A stretch of DNA of 64,000 bases from Porphyridium purpureum (GCA_008690995.1 VRMN01000001.1:682001-746000), one strand, 5' to 3'. Counted from the stretch's first letter, positions 40,001 through 51,028 are shown. Numbers and translations are program-made. Notes: generated from the letters alone by a model not told the origin.

Positions 40001-40187
40001 TTTTGGCACCAACGTCTCTCCTATCGTACTAGTAAACCAGCTATGCGTTGTCATCATTATGCCTTTCCCTCTTACACTTTACGTACAGATTCACAACAAC
40101 CAACAAAATGCACTCAACTTGCAAGCGCTCATCCACCAACTGTACTCACACAGAACACAATCCACCCCCGTTTTTTCATCTTTTATA

Positions 40188-41730
40188 CAGTCCTGGCCAA
40201 GATGTTTGCAACACCCTCATAAAAAGAGAAATTCGTGTAAAAGTGAAGAATCTTGATAGACAAGGGTATGTTTTGAGCACGCCAATCGATCGCACGTCCC
40301 AAGAAACACTGGGGAGCGTCCAACGGGAGGAAAAGGCAAGGAAAGAGCACATGGGCAATGGAGACACCGAAAAGGGGTATTGGCGAGAGGCGCAAGTTTT
40401 GGAACGTAAGAAAGAAACACGAAGATCAAGAAGGATGAGACTTTAGTACTTGGTGTGGTGGCCGCGCACGTCTAGTACAGCTTGAAGACGGCGAGGCATG
40501 GACTCCAACAGTGGAACTACGTACTTTTGGGCCTCGGTCGCCCACGCCGCAAGGACGGCAGCCTTAAGTTCTGCGACGCGTGCGAACTGGCGGCATTTTC
40601 GGTAAACCACGCGCGACAAGACGCCCCAAATGTTTTCAATTGGGTTAAGGTCCGGAGACCTTGCAGGCCACGGCAGCACAGTGACGCCGAGTGCGTCGAG
40701 CCACGCCTTGGTCGAGTTGGCCGTATGTGCCGGGGCATTGTCTTGCTGGAAAGTGAAATTGAAGTCATACATTTCCAGGCCGAACGGAAGCAAGGCTTCC
40801 AGCAAGACTTGTTGATACTTCACGGCATTCAAGCCACCCTCGACGAAGACGGCCATTGTTAGGCCGCGCAGGGACATACCGGCCCACATGTGAACCTTGC
40901 CACCTCCAGAGTGCTGACGCCTGGCGTACGAACTTGACTTAGCGCGACAGTCGACCCATCGCTGCGAGGAGCCGAATGGGCCATCGCAGCTCCAAATCTT
41001 CTCGTCTGAAAAGACCACTTGATGCCAGAAAGCCATTGGTTTCGCAATGAATGCGGTGGCAAACGCCAAACGCTTCCTGATGTTGTCAGACGACAGCGAA
41101 GGTTTCCGCGAGACTCGCTTGTAGCGAAGAAAGCCTGCTGCTTGAAGCGTCCGACGCACTGTCCTGGCCGAGCACTGCAAGTGCAGCTCGTGAACCACCT
41201 GTCCGGACGTCAGTGCATCAACAGATACGAAGCGAATGATGCGGCGTTCCGATTTGCGACTCAAAAGCCGTTTCGGACCTGGCTTCTTGCGGACAATTCG
41301 GCGCCCCCTTGACGCCAGATAACGGCTCACAGTTGCATAGGACGGTCGCGAGCGATCTGGGCGAGGCTTCAGAGCCTTCGCAATGGCTCGCACCGACAGC
41401 TCCTGGCCCGCAAGGGCGTCGATCTGCCCTTTTTCGTGTTCCGACAGCCACGGCGCCATTGTTCGGCCGTCGCGCGCTCAATTTCGATCTGGAGACTCTC
41501 CGCTTGCGCACGACGAGATGGATCAGCGAGCGAAGATCCTTTGAGCACCTTCTGATGGTCTGGGGAAAACAAAAACGCGCGCGCCGCGCCTTGGTTCATC
41601 GTCATGCTCGATGTTGACAATGTTAAAAAAAGAGTTAAAAGTAAGTTTTCTATTAAAATGGGCTATTTCACGATAAGATCCAATTTTTTGGACCAAAATG
41701 CAGGTGTTGCAAACATCTTGGCCAGGACTG
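40188..41730 (-). mobile_element. Intact Tc1/mariner DNA transposon (1543 bp)
   Basis: Perfect 28-bp TIRs CAGTCCTGGCCAAGATGTTTGCAACACC (40188-40215 and reverse complement 41703-41730), flanked by TA duplications (40186-40187, 41731-41732). Confidence 0.97.
40443..41459 (-). CDS. Tc1-family DD34E transposase
   Basis: N-terminal HTH regions, VVFSDEK, FQQDNAPAH, WPARSPDLNPIENIW; 34 residues between the second D and E. Confidence 0.96.
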   Translation of the reverse strand: MAPWLSEHEKGQIDALAGQELSVRAIAKALKPRPDRSRPSYATVSRYLASRGRRIVRKKPGPKRLLSRKSERRIIRFVSVDALTSGQVVHELHLQCSARTVRRTLQAAGFLRYKRVSRKPSLSSDNIRKRLAFATAFIAKPMAFWHQVVFSDEKIWSCDGPFGSSQRWVDCRAKSSSYARRQHSGGGKVHMWAGMSLRGLTMAVFVEGGLNAVKYQQVLLEALLPFGLEMYDFNFTFQQDNAPAHTANSTKAWLDALGVTVLPWPARSPDLNPIENIWGVLSRVVYRKCRQFARVAELKAAVLAAWATEAQKYVVPLLESMPRRLQAVLDVRGHHTKY

Positions 41731-42054
41731 TACATACAAATTGAACATCAAAAATTAAAATTAGAGTTAAAGTTGACGAAGTTCGTCTAGTGATGTGGCG
41801 TGTGACTGTACCTTCTACCAGAATGCCTTTTTTCCCATTGTGGTGGTGCGTCAATTTCTTCTTGCGGTGGGTGTACAGCTGAAATCTCCACACACACACA
41901 AACAAGCGTATCACAATAAATATCGTGCGCGCGCTGGGTCATGAAGTTGTTCTTTCCTTTTAGGCTCGACCCGATCACCATATCAACGCGCATCACACCA
42001 CTACACTAAAACACAACTAATCCCAGTACTAGTGCCAGTCATAATAGTAGTAGT

Positions 42055-42851
42055 CGTGGAATTTTAGGGTTCCGCCCCGAGAGACGCCGTAGGGTTTTGA
42101 GTACAAAACCCTAGAAAGTTCTATGATGAAAGATTGTTCGAGAAGCGTGATGATCTCGGACCTGCGAAATGTTTGTCATTGTCGTTTTGTGTGACCTTGT
42201 GCAAAGGTCAAAGGCCGGCCGAAGCTTCTGGATTCGTTCTTGACGCGCCCTCCCGGCCATTTTCCGGATACGTGGCCGGCTGTGGTTGCGAGTTGTGGAA
42301 CGAATCAAAACCTGTGGTGGAAATTCGTCCTGTTGGAGAAATTTGTTCTCCCGTCCTTGCTGGAAAGAGCAAGGACGAAGGGTATAAAAGGACGAAGGGG
42401 CAAGCTGGTTCCCAGGAATTTCCAGGTCAAGGTAGAAGAAGAGGTAAGGGCAAATAGAATAAAAAGAGAATTGGTTAGTTGGATTGAGGCAGTCGTTGGA
42501 AGACTTGGGTTGGATTTGCGGGAGAGGCACGCTAGCGTGTTGTGCGAGCGGATATCGGTCTGGAGTGTTTTTAAAAAGGCAGCTGGGGTTTAAACGTACC
42601 TTCCATCACCCTTCACTTGTCAAGACCGGTCCACTCCCTCTCGTAGTCCCCTATAAGTTGAATTTTCTGTCCTCTCTTCCTTTCTAGCCACTTTTCTCTG
42701 ATTGTCCTGCTTGTCCTTCCGTTCGTTTCGGTGTGTCGGTTCGTCGTCGGTTTGTCAGTTTCCGGGGTGTGGCGGTTTCCAGTTCCTGTTATCGGTGAAG
42801 CGATCCGGTTTTGTTGATTCGGTTACAAAGCAGAAAGGGAGAAATTCCAAG
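42055..42851 (+). repeat. 5' LTR (CG-TGGAATTT...AAATTCCA-AG)
   Basis: Matches 47019-47815 with one difference noticed (A42194/G47158). TATAAAA at 42383 and AATAAA at 42458. Confidence 0.96.
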
Positions 42852-42869
42852 TGGTATCATCGCCCGGTT
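42852..42869 (+). promoter_or_regulatory. Primer-binding site, probably for initiator tRNA-Met
   Basis: TGGTATCATCGCCCGGTT directly after the LTR. Its reverse complement parses as AA|CCGGG|CGATGAT|A|CCA, a tRNA 3' end. Confidence 0.85.
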
Positions 42870-42880
42870 GTTTGGAGAAA

Positions 42881-43828
42881 ATGGAAAGCCATGAAATGGA
42901 AATGAATGTCCCGCAGGAGAATGCGGCATGGATTGAGGCAGCTAATCAGCTGCATGCGCGCATTGCGGGACAGGAGATGATGATGGCACAAGTGCAGGAA
43001 GCGAATCGTAACCTCCATGAAATGATGCAAGTTTTGTTGCGCCAGCAGACCGTGGCGTCTGGGTCTGGTGACAACGATCGTGCCATGGCCGCGTTAATTG
43101 GGCGCAGTTTGAGAAAGTTTGATGGTCAGCGTGACAAGCTCGTTGTCAATGAATGGCTGATGCGAATGAAGAGCGACCTGGATATCTGCATGCCCGCAGG
43201 TGCTTTGGACTCGCAGAAAGTGATTGTTGCAAGTCGCTTTTTCGAGAGGGACGCAGCGCTGCTTTGGGCAGCTCGTCCGGAGGAGCAGAGAAAGGGCCTT
43301 GCAGAGGCCGGATGGGATGCGTTCGCAAACTTCGTGCGCACAGCGTTTGAGCCGCCGCAGGCGCATTTGACAGCGCGCACCAATCTGTATCAGTTGAAGC
43401 AAGGGAAAATGACGGTCGCAGAATTTGAGCAGAATCTCAGGATGACAGCGTTGTCAGTTGAAGATGTGACAGATGCAGAACTGAACACCATCTTCACGCT
43501 GGGCTTGAAGGAGAAACTGCGTATTGAGGTGGCCCGTCAGGACACAAGGACCTTGGAAGAATCACTGAAAGTTGCGTTGGCAGCTGAGCAGGTTGCAAAG
43601 TTCGGAGGAGATATGAGTCAAGTGATCAAGAACTCGTCATCGACTCATAGCAGGGCGTTCTCGTCGCATTCTGGTAGCGCACCAATGGATTTGGGAGCCA
43701 TGGACAAGCGGAAGTCTGGCAAGACCAAAGTGAAGTGTTACCATTGTGGAGAACGTGGACACATTAAGCCCAAATGCCCTAAATTGAAGGAGCGCTTGGC
43801 AGGTGGTCCGCCAGAGCCGGAAAACTAA
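42881..43828 (+). CDS. gag: Gag (Ty3/gypsy-type capsid plus CCHC zinc knuckle)
   Basis: KFDG...WL, LKQGKMTVAEF, FTLGLK, APMDLG, CYHCGERGHIKPKC. Confidence 0.92.
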   Translation: MESHEMEMNVPQENAAWIEAANQLHARIAGQEMMMAQVQEANRNLHEMMQVLLRQQTVASGSGDNDRAMAALIGRSLRKFDGQRDKLVVNEWLMRMKSDLDICMPAGALDSQKVIVASRFFERDAALLWAARPEEQRKGLAEAGWDAFANFVRTAFEPPQAHLTARTNLYQLKQGKMTVAEFEQNLRMTALSVEDVTDAELNTIFTLGLKEKLRIEVARQDTRTLEESLKVALAAEQVAKFGGDMSQVIKNSSSTHSRAFSSHSGSAPMDLGAMDKRKSGKTKVKCYHCGERGHIKPKCPKLKERLAGGPPEPEN

Positions 43829-43880
43829 GACCTCGAGAGCCAAGACAGGAGGAGATCTCGAGGGGAATGGAGCCTCCTGT
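43819..43880 (+). promoter_or_regulatory. -1 programmed ribosomal frameshift: G_GAA_AAC slippery site plus H-type pseudoknot
   Basis: Heptamer 43819-43825 just before the gag TAA. Pol is in the -1 frame and open across the site. S1 CCTCGAGA/TCTCGAGG, S2 ACAGGAGG/CCTCCTGT. Confidence 0.85.
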
Positions 43881-46800
43881 AATGGGTGTTGTGGAAGGTG
43901 TTGCGCACGAGGGTGCGAGGTCAAGGCTCTTCTACAAACATGGGAAAGTGAGTGGTTCAAAAATCGACTTCTTGATTGACAGTGGAGCGTCGCATAATTT
44001 CCTGGGGTCCCGATTCTTGGACGCAAGCGTAAAGTCCAGTTGCGATGAATGCATGGTCGAGCTTGCGGGAGGACAGAGAATGAAGGTGCACGGCCCCATT
44101 GTGCTTGCGGTGGACCTCGGTTTCTGGATAGGGAACGTCGAGTTTTATATCGGTCCCATTCGTATGGATGCCATCTTAGGGTGGAAATGGCTCAAGATGG
44201 TGAATCCTAAGATTGATTGGCAGAAGGGACTGATGGAAACGAGGCCCGAGGGGAAGGAAATATGCACGTTGGAAAATGTTGAAGAAGTGGTTCCCGAGCT
44301 TGACGGGAAAAATCAGAGCGTGGCTGCTTCGGAACACGAGTTGACTCACATGCCTATGCAAAGAGACTGTGAGACGTGTGTCGTGGCGAAGATAAAGCGA
44401 CGCCCGGCCCGAAGGCTGGAGAAAGATGTCAGTGCATTGTCATTCAATGATGAAGTCGGAATTGACTTGGTGGAGCCTGGGCGAAATGTGAAGTCGGTAG
44501 ATGGTTCAAAGTTTATTTTGACGCATATCGACAGAGCCACAGGATGGGTGACATTGGCGGGGCTACGTGCGAAAACCCACACGGCGGTTGCGGACGCTTG
44601 GAAAAGTGTGCAAGCCGGGAGAGGATGGCCGAAGGTTTTGCGAACGGATGATGGGAATGAGTTCAAGGGAGATGTGGGGAGACTGGTGCGTGAACACCTC
44701 ATAAAGCACGAGGTGGGGATTCCGTACAGGCCAAACAGTCATGCTGAACAGGAGCGGTTTCACCACACGCTGAATCAGGGAATCCGTGCGAATCTTGTGC
44801 AGGCCGGACTCGGGAAGCGTTGGTTCATGCACGCCGCGCAGCATTTTGCGTTCATGACGAATAGACTTCACGTGGGCAGGAAGTCTGGAAAGACGCCGTT
44901 TGAATTACGACATGGTGAAAAATGGTCGCCGAGAAATCTTAGTTTGCCATTCGGGTGCAAGGTGGTCTACAAAGATGATCAGCCTGACAATAAGTATGCA
45001 CCGCGAGGAAAAGTTGGCATTCTCGTCGGCGTTGGAGAGCATCCGATGGCAATTTTGGTGCTTCCTCGGGATGACTGGACGAGTGAGACCCCAAAAGTAA
45101 TTCGCACTCAGGATTTTAAGGCATTTACCCATGAGTTCCCTTTAAAGGGAATTGAACGAGAGGTGGTGAGCCTGAGCCAGCAGGAAGAGTTGCCAGAAGT
45201 GGACGAACCATCCGCGGTTGAAGCGGTGCAGGACTTGGATCGTCGTATCGATGCTCTCAGAGCTAGAGAAGCGGAGCTTGAGAAAGAGATCGAGGCATTG
45301 AAAGTGAGAGTGGTTGACGAAGAACGGGCAGCAGGCACGGGTGGTCCAGTGACGATCCCACAGTTGAACTTAACGACTTTGCTGAAAACTGGAGCGGCGT
45401 TGGCGTCTGAGCAAGGACGAGCCGCGATGGAAAAAGAAGTCAAATCCATGCTGAAATTTGGGGTATGGGATGAGAGTCCCTTGACGCTGGAGGAGGCCCG
45501 GAGGCAACCTGGTGCTCGTTTCGTACGCACACATTTCATTTTCGGTCTGAAATTTGCTGAGATGCCGGAAGAATTTCGCAAGGTGAAGTGCCGCTTGGTG
45601 GCCGGGGGAAACAGGATATGGGGGTCCGATGGAGCTGCGACGAATGACATTTTTGATTATGAGACGCCTGCTGGTTTGTCAGCTATCCGAATGATAATAG
45701 CTGTGGCTGCAATTCTGGGCCTTCAGATTGTTAGTTTCGACATCAGCTCGGCATACCTCCATGCGGACCTGTCTGGGCCACCTACGTTTGCATACTTACC
45801 GCGTGAAATTTGTGATTCAAAAGACACAGTAGTCAGGCTGAGAAAGGCGCTGTATGGCTTGCCCAGGAGCGGCTCGGATTTCTCACAAGATGCTCGGAGG
45901 AGATTGCAAAAGTTCCAGTGGAAGCTCGTGCATGGTGAAAAGAATGTGTACGTCCGGAGAAATGCTGCAAGTTCGTCAGTTGCGTTGTTGGCTCTGTACG
46001 TGGATGATGGTCTATTAGCCTGTCGAGAGGAGGAACGCCCAGGAATCATCGAAGAATTGAAACAAGAGTTTCTCATAGAAAAAGCACCAGAACTATTGAC
46101 GGAAGGAGGATCCTTGAGATTCCTGGGGACGAGCATTTCCCTCAAAAATGGGAGCGTGAGTTTGGCGAATCAAGAGTATCAAGATGTGGTCATTCGGGAA
46201 TTTGAGCAGGATATTAGACGCGTATTGCGTGCCGTGAAGTCACCATCTGAGAAGCTAGATGGCGAGGAAGTTCTGAATTATCAAGTCATCTGGAAGACTT
46301 TGAAAGTAAGAGAACACGTCGGGAGGCTGATGTGGCTCGCCAGAACGGTTCGACCTGATATTGCGTATGCAGTCGGTATGATTGCCCGGTACGTTGACAA
46401 GTGGAATGTGGCAGCAGAAAGGCTGCTCGTACGAGTCGTGCAGTATTTGAAAACACCTCGGGAAGCATTGGAGTATCACGTGTTGGGGAATCTCAAGGAA
46501 GGCATCAGAGGGGTGAACATTCTTGGATACACGGATGCTGACTTTGCTGGTTGTCCAGAGAGTCGTGTGTCGACTTCTGGAAGAGCAACGTACTTAGTTG
46601 CTGGAGATTACAAGTACCTAGTGGATTGGTCTTCGAGAAAGCAGCGTTTCGTGAGCTCGTCGACTTCAGAGTCGGAGTTGGCTGCCCTAGAGGAAACTGT
46701 GCAACTCTCGTTGTTTCCTGCATTGTCTTTCTTGCGAAGTATACGTGACGGAGAGTTCTCGGTGATTTTGATGTGTGACAATCAAGCTGTGATGCGAGCA

Positions 46801-47031
46801 ATAGAGATGGGGTACTCGCCAAAGTTGCATCATATGGCGATAACCCGAGCAACAGATTTGGCCTGGTTGCATCAGGTGTGCGAAAAGCAGAAACTTGTGA
46901 AACTGGCATTTGTGAAGACGGACGAAAATGTGGCGGACTTAATGACCAAGGCCTTATTTCCGGAGGGCCACATTAAGTGCTGGGAGAAGTTACGCGTCCC
47001 TCAGACCGGAAGGAGGAGCGTGGAATTTTAG
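43819..47031 (+). CDS. pol: Pol polyprotein: protease - integrase - reverse transcriptase - RNase H (reached by -1 frameshift)
   Basis: PR LIDSGASHNF, DAILGWKWL. IN HELTH..CETC, IDLV, RTDDGNEF, QERF, PFGC..KYAPRG..GILVG. RT KCRLVAGG, FDISSAYL, KALYGL, LYVDDGL. RH YTDADFAG, STSESEL, CDNQA, ENVADLMTK. Confidence 0.95.
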   Translation, partial: GKLRPREPRQEEISRGMEPPVMGVVEGVAHEGARSRLFYKHGKVSGSKIDFLIDSGASHNFLGSRFLDASVKSSCDECMVELAGGQRMKVHGPIVLAVDLGFWIGNVEFYIGPIRMDAILGWKWLKMVNPKIDWQKGLMETRPEGKEICTLENVEEVVPELDGKNQSVAASEHELTHMPMQRDCETCVVAKIKRRPARRLEKDVSALSFNDEVGIDLVEPGRNVKSVDGSKFILTHIDRATGWVTLAGLRAKTHTAVADAWKSVQAGRGWPKVLRTDDGNEFKGDVGRLVREHLIKHEVGIPYRPNSHAEQERFHHTLNQGIRANLVQAGLGKRWFMHAAQHFAFMTNRLHVGRKSGKTPFELRHGEKWSPRNLSLPFGCKVVYKDDQPDNKYAPRGKVGILVGVGEHPMAILVLPRDDWTSETPKVIRTQDFKAFTHEFPLKGIEREVVSLSQQEELPEVDEPSAVEAVQDLDRRIDALRAREAELEKEIEALKVRVVDEERAAGTGGPVTIPQLNLTTLLKTGAALASEQGRAAMEKEVKSMLKFGVWDESPLTLEEARRQPGARFVRTHFIFGLKFAEMPEEFRKVKCRLVAGGNRIWGSDGAATNDIFDYETPAGLSAIRMIIAVAAILGLQIVSFDISSAYLHADLSGPPTFAYLPREICDSKDTVVRLRKALYGLPRSGSDFSQDARRRLQKFQWKLVHGEKNVYVRRNAASSSVALLALYVDDGLLACREEERPGIIEELKQEFLIEKAPELLTEGGSLRFLGTSISLKNGSVSLANQEYQDVVIREFEQDIRRVLRAVKSPSEKLDGEEVLNYQVIWKTLKVREHVGRLMWLARTVRPDIAYAVGMIARYVDKWNVAAERLLVRVVQYLKTPREALEYHVLGNLKEGIRGVNILGYTDADFAGCPESRVSTSGRATYLVAGDYKYLVDWSSRKQRFVSSSTSESELAALEETVQLSLFPALSFLRSIRDGEFSVILMCDNQAVMRAIEMGYSPKLHHMAITRATDLAWLHQVCEKQKLVKLAFVKTDENVADLMTKALFPEGHIKCWEKLRVPQTGRRSVEF
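47008..47018 (+). promoter_or_regulatory. Polypurine tract
   Basis: GGAAGGAGGAG immediately upstream of the 3' LTR. Confidence 0.88.
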
Positions 47032-47815
47032 GGTTCCGCCCCGAGAGACGCCGTAGGGTTTTGAGTACAAAACCCTAGAAAGTTCTATGATGAAAGATTG
47101 TTCGAGAAGCGTGATGATCTCGGACCTGCGAAATGTTTGTCATTGTCGTTTTGTGTGGCCTTGTGCAAAGGTCAAAGGCCGGCCGAAGCTTCTGGATTCG
47201 TTCTTGACGCGCCCTCCCGGCCATTTTCCGGATACGTGGCCGGCTGTGGTTGCGAGTTGTGGAACGAATCAAAACCTGTGGTGGAAATTCGTCCTGTTGG
47301 AGAAATTTGTTCTCCCGTCCTTGCTGGAAAGAGCAAGGACGAAGGGTATAAAAGGACGAAGGGGCAAGCTGGTTCCCAGGAATTTCCAGGTCAAGGTAGA
47401 AGAAGAGGTAAGGGCAAATAGAATAAAAAGAGAATTGGTTAGTTGGATTGAGGCAGTCGTTGGAAGACTTGGGTTGGATTTGCGGGAGAGGCACGCTAGC
47501 GTGTTGTGCGAGCGGATATCGGTCTGGAGTGTTTTTAAAAAGGCAGCTGGGGTTTAAACGTACCTTCCATCACCCTTCACTTGTCAAGACCGGTCCACTC
47601 CCTCTCGTAGTCCCCTATAAGTTGAATTTTCTGTCCTCTCTTCCTTTCTAGCCACTTTTCTCTGATTGTCCTGCTTGTCCTTCCGTTCGTTTCGGTGTGT
47701 CGGTTCGTCGTCGGTTTGTCAGTTTCCGGGGTGTGGCGGTTTCCAGTTCCTGTTATCGGTGAAGCGATCCGGTTTTGTTGATTCGGTTACAAAGCAGAAA
47801 GGGAGAAATTCCAAG
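47019..47815 (+). repeat. 3' LTR
   Basis: Direct repeat of 42055-42851 at offset 4964. Confidence 0.96.
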
Positions 47816-48607
47816 GTAGTTGTTGTTTGTTGTAGTAGTGATAGTAGTGAGAGAATGGATTCGATGAGGTACTGTCATTTTGGTGAGAGAACTAGGAAAC
47901 GTGGTGTGCGCGATGGTGGAGAAGAAGAAGGGGGTGGGTGTGGGTGTGGGTGAGGGGGGGATGAGTGAGTGTCTGTGTGGATGGTAAAGGGGTTCACGGT
48001 GAGCTGAATCGACGGCGCGGCGTGCGGCAGGGGGAAAGGTGGGGTGGGAACTGTCCGGCGGGTGTGGCATTCACGCAGCCCGCGGGCTCCGGCGTCGCGC
48101 AGATCTACAGCGTGAGGTAATGCGCCACGTGCGTGCAGCGGCGTTCGTGTGACCAAAGCGGTTCGCCCGCGCGGCTTCGGGAAAAAGAGGGCAGAACAGT
48201 AAAGGCGTCTGGTGAGGCTTACGCGGTACAAACGTGCATCAGACTGAGAGAAGGAGCCTGGCGCGGGGGTTTGTGGGGGTTCCAGACGTCTGCGTTGAGA
48301 CGAGGAAGCGCTGACTTCATCGGCTGCTCGCGGGGACCGCAGTTCTAGGAGCTTCGGTTCATGCAGGCCAGGGGGTGCCTTGTGTTTCCGTGCATCGGCG
48401 TGCAGAACAAGGATTTGAAGGTTACCGCTCAGAAGTGAGGAGATAGGCCTCGTTGGCTCCACCAGGAGCGTAGGACGCTCGTGCTGACTGACTTGCGAGG
48501 AGGGCTGCTCTCCAGGCTTTTTGAACTTTACTCGGCGCATCATCTGTTTTGGACAAATCAAATTCAGGTGGAAGGCCCACAATAAGTTTCTTCAAGAGAG
48601 AAGAGCG

Positions 48608-51028
48608 ATGAGTCATTATGCTAAACAGCCCGACGCTGTTGCAGATTCGCAGTGCGAAACGGAAACAGCGATCAGTGCGCACAAGGAAAAGAATGCCGCC
48701 GCGGAACAGGCGGACGAGCATCATGAACAAAACCGTCTTTCCCATAACCAAGCTTGCTTTGGAGCAAGCGGCGCCTCTTCTGTCGAGGAAGTTGGGCACA
48801 AGCCTCAAAGTAATGGGGAAATGTCGACTGCCGTGGGCACAGATGAAACGGCCGATATAGAGGAGCACGAGAACGGAACGGTCTCGGGGGCCCCGGCAAA
48901 AGTGCCGTCCCCAAAGCAAGAGCGGGCTCTTGAAACGCTGGTGGAAGAGCAACGGCCTTTCTCGGCCGTGACACCAGATAAGGCCTCGAGTCCTGCGACG
49001 GTACCGACCGACGTAGTTGGGGGCCAGCAGGACCTCGAGGCACATGGCAGTGGAGCTCGCATGAAAGTTTGGATTCCTATTGACAGAGTCGGTCTTTTGA
49101 TCGGCCAAAAGGGCTGCATGATACGAACCCTGCAGGAGCGCTCTGGTGCGGTGATCACGGTGCATAATGATCGCGTGGACGAGGTGAACAGAATGAAACT
49201 TGTCACAATCTCTGGCGCGCGGGCGAGTGTCAATACAGCGCGCGGTCTGATCGACAATATAATGTCGCGCCCGGCTCCGCTCGGCGTGCGGTCAACACCT
49301 CAAGGTATTGTTCCATCGAGCCCTTCTGCTGCCTCGTTGATGTCACCATATCCTGGCATGGCGACACCGGTTCCGATTTTGCCTCCGTTCTATCTGCAAC
49401 CGCCGGAAGATACAACCAGCGCTTCGCCCGGTATGCCAATGAATGAGGGAGGGAGAAGAAGACCGCACCAGCCTCAGCAGCACGTTCAGCAATGGATGGA
49501 TCCAATGATGCATGCATATTATGGGGCGGTTGCAGCCGCGCCGAGCGGGTTTCCCAGTGCGCCTTACGCGGCCTACACAAATGCGCTATATGGAGGAATG
49601 GCGTACCCGGGGATGGGGATGAGCTTGGGGATGCCTGGTGGTGAGTCAAGGACAGGGTCAAGCCCGGGCATGCGTGCAAGGTCTTATACGGGATTGTCTG
49701 GAAACATGAGTTCAGCTGCTCAGTCGCCACATATGGCATTAACCTCGCGGCAAGTGCTGATACCAAATTCATCCGTAGGCGTGGTTATAGGCAAGGGCGG
49801 TGAGGCCATCAAAACGCTTCAGAACCGATCTCGCGCGTTGATCAAAGTCACTCCCGATAGTCGCGCGGATAAGAGCATCAGTGAGCGTGTCGTGACGATT
49901 TGCGGGACAGCAGAAGCAATCGAGGCGGCTGAGCGAATGCTGATGGAATTAATTTCCGAGCACGTCCAGCGGAAGCAGCAGCGCGGCTGGAGAAAGGGGA
50001 CCGCCGATCTTGGAGGGGATGATGAGCGTTTGGAGGCAGATGTCCGCGACTTGTCGCTCTCGGAACGGAATCTGTCCGACACGAGTGCAACAAACACAGT
50101 CGGGACACCTGCAAGTCCATCAGCGCCTGGTTTGCAGCAGCAGCAGCAGCAGCAACAACAACAACAACAACAACAGCAACAGCAGCAGGAGTACCAGGAG
50201 CAGCAGTTGCAAGATCCTGATGCTGCTCATGCTCAGCAGTGGTACTACCACAATGCAATGAATAATCAAGGTTTTGATCCAGGCACACCGGCCAGTGTTG
50301 AACAGCTTGAGCAGTTCCAGCTCCAACAGCAGGCAAACATGTACTACGGGTTCATGCCATACTATGGGGGCGGCGGTGCAGCATCGCAAGTGCTCCCTGC
50401 CAGTATGCTGGTCCCGAGCGACAAGGTCGGTTTGATCATCGGTCGCGGAGGCGCGACTATTCGAGACATTCAACAACGCGCACAAGTCCGTGTTGTAGTA
50501 GGCAGGGAAGGGGAGTCGCGTGATCCGCGCTTTCGAATTCTTTCTATATCAGGCTCGGTGCCCGCAGTAGAGTATGCGAAGCACCTAATCATGGAAGCGC
50601 TTCACGGAGCTCGGGATGGTTCATTGAATGCCGCGAAGCGTTTTCACGAAGAGGAGACCAAGTATCAGACAGGCGGCGGCGGAAGCAGCAGAGGAGGAGC
50701 ATATGAGGGCGGCGGCGGTCCGCAGGGCGGAGAAACGCACTACATGGGAGCGCCGGGGTACATGGGATTTTCATCAGAGTATTCCGGCTTGATCCCACCG
50801 GCAACTGGTGCTGCCGGCGGTGATCCGTCTGATCCGTCTCATGCTAGATTTTTGCCTGGCGGTATGATGATGTACCCGCCACAGGAATACATGCAGTACA
50901 TGTATGGTTACATCCCGACCATGCCACCAGTTACGCACAGCAGCGGCGGGGAAATGAAGTATCCTTCCGAGGTCATCGAGGGCTTCGCCTCTGCACCGCA
51001 GTCGGAGCTCGGTCAAGACGATGAATGA
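48608..51028 (+). CDS. KH-domain RNA-binding protein (3 KH domains, FUBP-like)
   Basis: VGLLIGQKG, VGVVIGKGGEAIK, VGLIIGRGGATIR; Tyr/Gly/Pro-rich linkers. Confidence 0.92.
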   Translation: MSHYAKQPDAVADSQCETETAISAHKEKNAAAEQADEHHEQNRLSHNQACFGASGASSVEEVGHKPQSNGEMSTAVGTDETADIEEHENGTVSGAPAKVPSPKQERALETLVEEQRPFSAVTPDKASSPATVPTDVVGGQQDLEAHGSGARMKVWIPIDRVGLLIGQKGCMIRTLQERSGAVITVHNDRVDEVNRMKLVTISGARASVNTARGLIDNIMSRPAPLGVRSTPQGIVPSSPSAASLMSPYPGMATPVPILPPFYLQPPEDTTSASPGMPMNEGGRRRPHQPQQHVQQWMDPMMHAYYGAVAAAPSGFPSAPYAAYTNALYGGMAYPGMGMSLGMPGGESRTGSSPGMRARSYTGLSGNMSSAAQSPHMALTSRQVLIPNSSVGVVIGKGGEAIKTLQNRSRALIKVTPDSRADKSISERVVTICGTAEAIEAAERMLMELISEHVQRKQQRGWRKGTADLGGDDERLEADVRDLSLSERNLSDTSATNTVGTPASPSAPGLQQQQQQQQQQQQQQQQQQEYQEQQLQDPDAAHAQQWYYHNAMNNQGFDPGTPASVEQLEQFQLQQQANMYYGFMPYYGGGGAASQVLPASMLVPSDKVGLIIGRGGATIRDIQQRAQVRVVVGREGESRDPRFRILSISGSVPAVEYAKHLIMEALHGARDGSLNAAKRFHEEETKYQTGGGGSSRGGAYEGGGGPQGGETHYMGAPGYMGFSSEYSGLIPPATGAAGGDPSDPSHARFLPGGMMMYPPQEYMQYMYGYIPTMPPVTHSSGGEMKYPSEVIEGFASAPQSELGQDDE
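50135..50188 (+). repeat. CAG/CAA repeat encoding Q18
   Basis: Read directly inside the KH protein. Confidence 0.95.

Follow-up and report, generated by a model that had tools for sequence, protein, structure and literature searches.

The Ty1/copia and Ty3/gypsy LTR retrotransposons are treated as separate virus families with domains that travel together. A −1 frameshift is typical of gypsy elements and rare in copia. In the available text, Llorens et al. 2009 contrast an ILG protease motif with LLS, which almost all proteases of copia elements carry (PMC2774666). Neumann et al. describe recombination within copia, and the part of their work at hand states that chimeric-looking elements were removed from the plant reference set (PMC6317226). 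LTR elements account for 8% of the genome of the red alga Porphyridium purpureum and have expanded recently; the accessible portion of the genome paper, with one supplementary table, lists both LTR/Copia and LTR/Gypsy, and element structure is not described there (PMC6811547).

We analysed a 64,000-nt stretch of P. purpureum DNA (the window), in which positions 42055–47815 form a complete LTR element. A previous reading made from the sequence alone had proposed an inter-superfamily recombinant, and the claim is supported by discordant domain identities and by trees that reject a shared history in both directions. It needs two refinements: the join is old and common to two families, and is not particular to this copy, and the copia half comes from a divergent lineage. 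Domain trees, profile scores and Pfam scans, of the kind that reading had called for, together put Gag and protease (PR) with gypsy and integrase (IN), reverse transcriptase (RT) and RNase H (RH) on the copia side. Very probably, the family joins a Ty3/gypsy Gag-PR to a copia IN-RT-RH through one old inter-superfamily recombination and is likely mobile; we infer the recombination route itself from sequence.

Architecture and insertion site

The general features of an LTR retrotransposon are all present: LTRs, primer-binding site, polypurine tract and a target-site duplication of the 4–6 bp class, here 5 bp (Table 1). The two LTRs are identical at 796 of 797 bases. We take the primer-binding site to be of the initiator-Met tRNA type, going by the general architecture of that tRNA. 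Every motif quoted in the sequence-only reading was found in the two ORFs: LKQG, FTLGL, APMDLG and the CCHC knuckle in gag, and LIDSGASHNF, DAILGW, HHCC, D-D-E, PFGC, KYAPRG, KCRLVAGG, FDISSAYL, KALYGL, YVDD, YTDADFAG and ADLMTK in pol. The motif positions confirm the order PR-IN-RT-RH, and the pol frame is indeed −1 relative to gag.

Table 1 Features of the element, with positions counted from the first base of the window.
Feature	Position	Strand	Remarks
Left target-site duplication, GTAGT	42050..42054	+	Within TAG/TTG-rich tract
5' LTR, 797 bp	42055..42851	+	CG-TG start, CA-AG end; 10-bp terminal inverted repeat, 1 mismatch
Primer-binding site	42852..42869	+	First bases TGGTATCA; abuts 5' LTR
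gag ORF, 315 aa	42881..43828	+	Coiled N-terminal helix, Ty3/gypsy-type capsid, PMDL motif, CCHC knuckle
gag capsid	~43103-43594	+	
gag CCHC knuckle	~43733-43783	+	
pol reading frame, PR-IN-RT-RH	43783..47031	+	Uninterrupted; stop codon within 3' LTR
Predicted −1 slippery heptamer, G GAA AAC	43819..43825	+	Immediately before gag stop
Predicted H-type pseudoknot	43831..43879	+	Stem 1 43831-37/43857-63; stem 2 43846-52/43873-79
Aspartic protease, Ty3/gypsy (chromovirus-like)	43924..44270	+	DSG at 43978; ILG motif ~44173
Gypsy/copia join interval	44225..44331	+	
Integrase, divergent copia-side lineage	44332..45150	+	Short HHCC; D 44464, D ~44647, E ~44752; copia-type SH3
Predicted coiled coil, IN C-terminus	45232..45310	+	Weak Pfam coiled-coil matches; alignment with family B
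Ty1/copia reverse transcriptase (RVT_2)	45361..46470	+	Pfam, profiles, trees
Ty1/copia RNase H	46516..46970	+	Profiles, trees
Polypurine tract, 11 bases	47008..47018	+	Abuts 3' LTR
3' LTR, 797 bp	47019..47815	+	
Right target-site duplication, GTAGT	47816..47820	+	

Pol is predicted to be made by a −1 frameshift at GGAAAAC. The gag ORF ends in GAA AAC TAA, and a slip on G GAA AAC into the pol frame leaves a single mismatch in the P site; no heptamer came up when only strict XXXYYYZ sites were allowed. Five bases after the putative slippery site begins a candidate pseudoknot with two perfect 7-bp crossing stems. None of 5000 shuffled sequences contained the pattern; among 12787 background windows it occurred in 11, four of which are the same site. 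A pseudoknot-free fold uses stem 2 (z −2.3). In each of the three related Gags, the last two residues before the stop are EN.

The insertion site (42030–42054 and 47816–47850), a low-complexity tract rich in TAG and TTG, lies upstream of a KH-domain gene, at a distance of about 670 bp from its open frame (48488–51028). A DNA transposon of the Tc1/mariner type occupies 40186–41732, some 320 bp away from the LTR element, and is bounded by terminal inverted repeats of 35 nt. Its transposase ORF (40443–41477, minus strand; DDE_3, HTH_Tnp_Tc3_2) is intact, and further copies are visible in contigs.

Domain affinities and the join

The proteins closest to those of the element come from P. purpureum and fall into two families. 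Family A, which includes the studied element, has a pol cluster of 16 members (15 listed), and its 315-aa Gag has three recorded variants, found on 4, 7 and 2 contigs. Family B comprises a pol cluster of 17 members (15 listed) and a 3-member cluster. A third related Gag is 57% identical, and no pol was seen with it. Two gene models, P0001 and P0122, contain two or three tandem family-A IN-RT-RH units, which suggests that the assembly contains tandem or nested arrays.

Gag matches Retrotrans_gag (E 2e-9) and Ty3_capsid (E 1.5e-8) above the Pfam cut-offs and scores 77 bits on a gypsy capsid profile against 0.5 bits on a copia capsid profile (built from 16 and 28 proteins, respectively). Neither Pfam nor profile scoring assigned it to the copia-type Retrotran_gag_2. 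The family B Gag and the third Gag likewise favour the gypsy over the copia profile, and those Atlas Gag matches that have any capsid family have Retrotrans_gag/Ty3_capsid. A structure model of Gag was poor (pLDDT 56), and its best fold matches in the PDB were dArc1, dArc2 and the Ty3 capsid, with E of at least 0.004. The top match in a PDB sequence search was the Drosophila Copia VLP protein (E 3e-4), which covers the C-terminal linker and zinc knuckle of Gag. A scan with an alignment of the three Gags found no relative in viral or metagenome contigs. With Pfam and the capsid profiles in agreement, Gag is, on sequence criteria, of the Ty3/gypsy side, as had been claimed.

The gypsy-type protease of the sequence-only reading is likewise borne out by profiles, tree and motif. 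Alone, it matches Asp_protease_2 at 25.6 bits (Pfam cut-off 24.3), and no Pol_BBD match was seen in Pfam at E<=0.5. It scores 106 bits on the gypsy profile and 13 on the copia profile, carries the non-copia ILG motif and lacks the copia LLS motif. In a 39-row tree, the proteases of A and B group with 16 gypsy proteases (support 100/99). The best 150 of 329 protease matches were kept save for the top one, P0166, a spurious repeat protein whose removal left 149. Among these, 40 of 149 have a recognisable RT, in all 40 cases gypsy, and none scored best as copia in any domain. The RT-linked neighbours include the chromodomain-bearing elements P0121 and P0185, and the protease shares an ILG..WL...NP.IDW block with chromovirus proteases. 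As the nearest genuine matches are only 29–42% identical, the parent gypsy element was not found. P0208, a fused copia-plus-gypsy gene model, was excluded from the profiles, and a single-sequence protease model (pLDDT 33) was too poor for use. In P0188, a gypsy-type protease is followed directly by a gypsy-type integrase, which represents either a Gmr1-like order or an internal deletion.

Downstream of the protease, Pol matches RVT_2 (Pfam, E 2e-18), and the domains score higher on copia than on gypsy profiles built without the studied sequences (RT 117/−1, RH 90/1 and IN 100/39 bits). No RT (RVT_1) or RNase H of gypsy type was found by Pfam, profiles or AU tests, and IN precedes RT rather than lying downstream of RH as in the gypsy order. 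In the RT tree, the element groups within copia with environmental elements and with Porphyridium families C and D (support 100%), and the RNase H tree gives the same group (support 91). IN is nearest to family D (support 82) and branches apart from the IN clade of classical copia; its match to SH3 stays under the Pfam cut-off. All three domains are on long branches. Their trees agree with RVT_2 and the profiles on the copia-type IN-RT-RNase H that had been proposed, refined in one respect: the copia half, as these trees place it, is a divergent lineage that belongs to none of the classical copia clades of plants or fungi.

The closest IN and RT relatives have LLS-like protease ends and a non-gypsy Gag. 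The family C Gag is clearly copia, two environmental Gags score at most 10.5 bits on either profile, and the proteases and Gags of the sister lineage are weak on both gypsy and copia profiles (0–16 bits). A gypsy-type protease was present in 0 of the 116 other RT/RH matches examined. Scanning with a pol alignment found no relative in viral contigs and 11 distant loci in metagenomes; in ORFs from these loci, no Ty3-type Gag was seen by eye, and the two Gags that were scored are not gypsy. Two sister-lineage metagenome records, P0019 and P0335, encode in a single ORF Gag-PR, the C-terminal part of RT with RNase H, IN and the N-terminal part of RT, and this permuted order, either a real rearrangement or an artefact of assembly, is present in both. 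Family C (P0153, P0009) has a classical copia Gag-PR-IN with RT and RH in the divergent clade of A and B. The trees suggest that it is a second, within-copia recombinant, which the AU tests did not support significantly (p = 0.15 and 0.33).

Clustering of Gag and PR with copia, which had been named as counting against the recombinant, was seen in none of the profiles, trees or AU tests. In AU tests of shared descent, for which groups were picked after the trees had been seen, PR was rejected as a companion of its IN relatives (p = 0.017), of the RT sisters (p = 0.001) and of classical copia (p = 0.020), and RT, IN and RH were rejected as companions of the three nearest gypsy neighbours of PR (p = 3e-35, 8e-31 and 4e-9, respectively). 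Looser tests, in which A and B had only to fall outside a group and could be placed at its base, were not significant (PR p = 0.40, RT 0.28, IN 0.25, RH 0.51). Gypsy references were selected by similarity to the PR of the element and copia references by similarity to its RT/RH, without curated GyDB or REXdb sequences, so that neither a named clade nor a donor can be given; in view of this selection and the post-hoc groups, Pfam is the more independent line of evidence. A deep-branching relic that retained an ancestral gypsy-like Gag-PR and a copia-like pol from before the superfamilies split would be compatible with the loose test, which does not reject PR at the base of gypsy, and with the long branches of IN, RT and RH. 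We nevertheless regard such a relic as quite improbable. The RT is nested in copia, in its fully supported clade, alongside elements with copia-type or non-gypsy PR and Gag, and the PR is specifically chromovirus-like; a relic would require several independent PR/Gag replacements among the sister elements.

The recombinant reading places the join between PR and IN. Most alignments to gypsy proteases stop at Pol residues 118–136 and IN starts at residue 156 (nt 44332), in agreement with the interval proposed earlier (about 44230–44330). The linker at the join is not conserved between A and B; a candidate remnant of a copia protease within it scored 5.0, inside the range of gypsy controls (maximum 9.75), and was rejected. 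A search for further copies of the junction had been suggested, and many gene models have the same PR-then-IN build: 14 of the 15 listed for family A (one being the studied element itself) and 14 of the 16 checked for family B. Because this build is common to both families, the join is older than their split, and the identities between A and B (87/61/76/73/78% in CA/PR/IN/RT/RH) show that both halves have diverged together. Fused gene models do exist among the matches (P0108, P0208), which could favour a recent or dead chimera, produced by nested insertion and deletion, or an assembly or gene-model artefact. We give this only a very slight chance: pol is a single open frame between near-identical LTRs flanked by a target-site duplication, the PR-IN spacing is constant (56 aa in 14/14 family-A models, 70 aa in 13/14 family-B models), and the two families have diverged together. 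Single contigs cross the junction in six of eight runs (X1, X6, X15, X2, X4 and X17), from five study codes, one of which may be the source of the studied sequence; this excludes an assembly chimera, which the sequence-only reading had named as a possible refutation. In runs X19 and X20 the junction is covered in pieces, without a bridging contig. It is also unlikely that the hybrid already counts as a known copia clade, catalogued in Repbase or GyDB or in a subscription paper. For copia proteases, Llorens et al. do mention "a very few exceptions" to LLS in the text at hand (PMC2774666). Against this, the available part of the genome paper gives only LTR/Copia and LTR/Gypsy totals (PMC6811547), and REXdb, according to the accessible text, excluded chimeric-looking elements (PMC6317226), so that RT-based pipelines would call the element plain copia. 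Our search of openly accessible literature found no published description of a gypsy Gag-PR on a copia pol or of this family, which agrees with the earlier suggestion of an undescribed lineage.

The element is a real, intact and probably active inter-superfamily hybrid, and its near-identical LTRs and many copies make it likely that it is still mobile. Between IN and RT, family B (P0141/P0140) has a Myb-like domain (Pfam E 8e-5, just below the cut-off) where family A has the predicted coiled coil. Copia family C (P0153, P0009) shows weaker Myb-like matches or look-alikes at the IN-RT position.

Unusual ends and a proposed cycle

Retroviruses and Ty3 trim their cDNA ends, and Ty1 needs no trimming because its cDNA already ends at CA, according to the portion available of PMC8487063. 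The element ends in CG...AG, with the usual TG...CA two bases inside and the GTAGT duplication outside CG and AG. These CG...AG copy ends, absent from the sequence-only reading, are a new finding here. In the junction alignments (best 18 of 20 and best 24 of 37), all seven right-end junctions of other copies among the matches listed continue through the final AG and none of the seven stops at CA; both left-end junctions among the matches listed start at C and have a common flank, representing one insertion. A 797-nt contig in run X15 corresponds exactly to the LTR at 42055–42851. As the copy ends run through CG and AG, the integrated unit is the whole stretch from polypurine tract to primer site. 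The simplest reading suggests that integrase joins untrimmed cDNA ends that extend two bases past CA; alternatively, the inner TG and CA could be part of the diverged 10-bp inverted repeat. At L006, a sister-lineage locus (480–510, 1350–1380), TG directly follows a similar polypurine tract, which fits extra end bases that are absent from the relatives of the copia half. The putative primer site of L006 lacks a TGG start. A survey that covered 50 plant genomes found, in the text available, that non-canonical LTR termini always keep their first T; CG...AG ends lie outside this rule, and filters for TG...CA would miss them (10.1101/137141).

In the cycle that we propose, an LTR transcript would be translated into Gag, and a pseudoknot-stimulated −1 slip at GGAAAAC would give a minority of Gag-Pol. 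The gypsy capsid would package the RNA, and the gypsy protease would release the copia enzymes by cleavage. RT, primed from the tRNA and the polypurine tract, would produce cDNA ending two bases past CA on each strand, and integrase would insert it untrimmed, resulting in CG...AG ends and the 5-bp duplication. We see an even chance that the family represents a working hybrid class outside Metaviridae and Pseudoviridae, in which Gag, frameshift and PR, possibly with the LTR ends, were swapped onto copia enzymes, and in which untrimmed ends of foreign style gave rise to a new CG...AG type.

A young, intact, multi-copy hybrid indicates that copia enzymes can work with a capsid and protease of gypsy type, and makes Gag-Pol compatibility, cleavage-site adaptation and end recognition by integrase testable. 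Porphyridium is reportedly a transformable alga (PMC10866757).

Comparison with described elements

The element falls outside Ty1/copia by its PR and Gag, and outside Ty3/gypsy by its RT, RH and the position of IN. With Ty1/copia elements, including Porphyridium families C (P0153) and D (P0155), it shares the PR-IN-RT-RH order, an RVT_2 RT, a copia RNase H, an SH3-type IN tail and a 5-bp target-site duplication, and its RT and RH are ~33–36% identical to those of families C and D. In contrast to these elements, its Gag is Ty3-type and not Retrotran_gag_2, its PR has ILG and not LLS, gag and pol are in separate frames, and it ends in CG...AG. Ty3/gypsy chromoviruses (P0121, P0185) have the same capsid family, PMDL motif with knuckle, protease type and pair of ORFs in −1 frame. 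They differ from the element, whose RT, RH and IN are not gypsy, whose IN precedes RT and which has no chromodomain.

PyRE1G1 of the red alga Porphyra is reportedly a copia element with a gypsy-like integrase and would thus be another red-algal copia with a cross-superfamily domain. Its reported foreign part is the integrase, whereas here Gag and protease are foreign. Gmr1-like gypsy elements, as covered by the available text of PMC2774666, resemble the element in having a gypsy Gag-PR followed directly by IN and then RT-RH; Gmr1 itself is gypsy, with its domains rearranged, whereas the RT, RH and IN of our element are themselves copia. Yeast Ty1 is similar to the proposed route in that blunt cDNA is inserted without 3' processing, but its cDNA ends at CA, according to the portion at hand of PMC8487063, whereas copies of the element end two bases beyond, with G on both strands.
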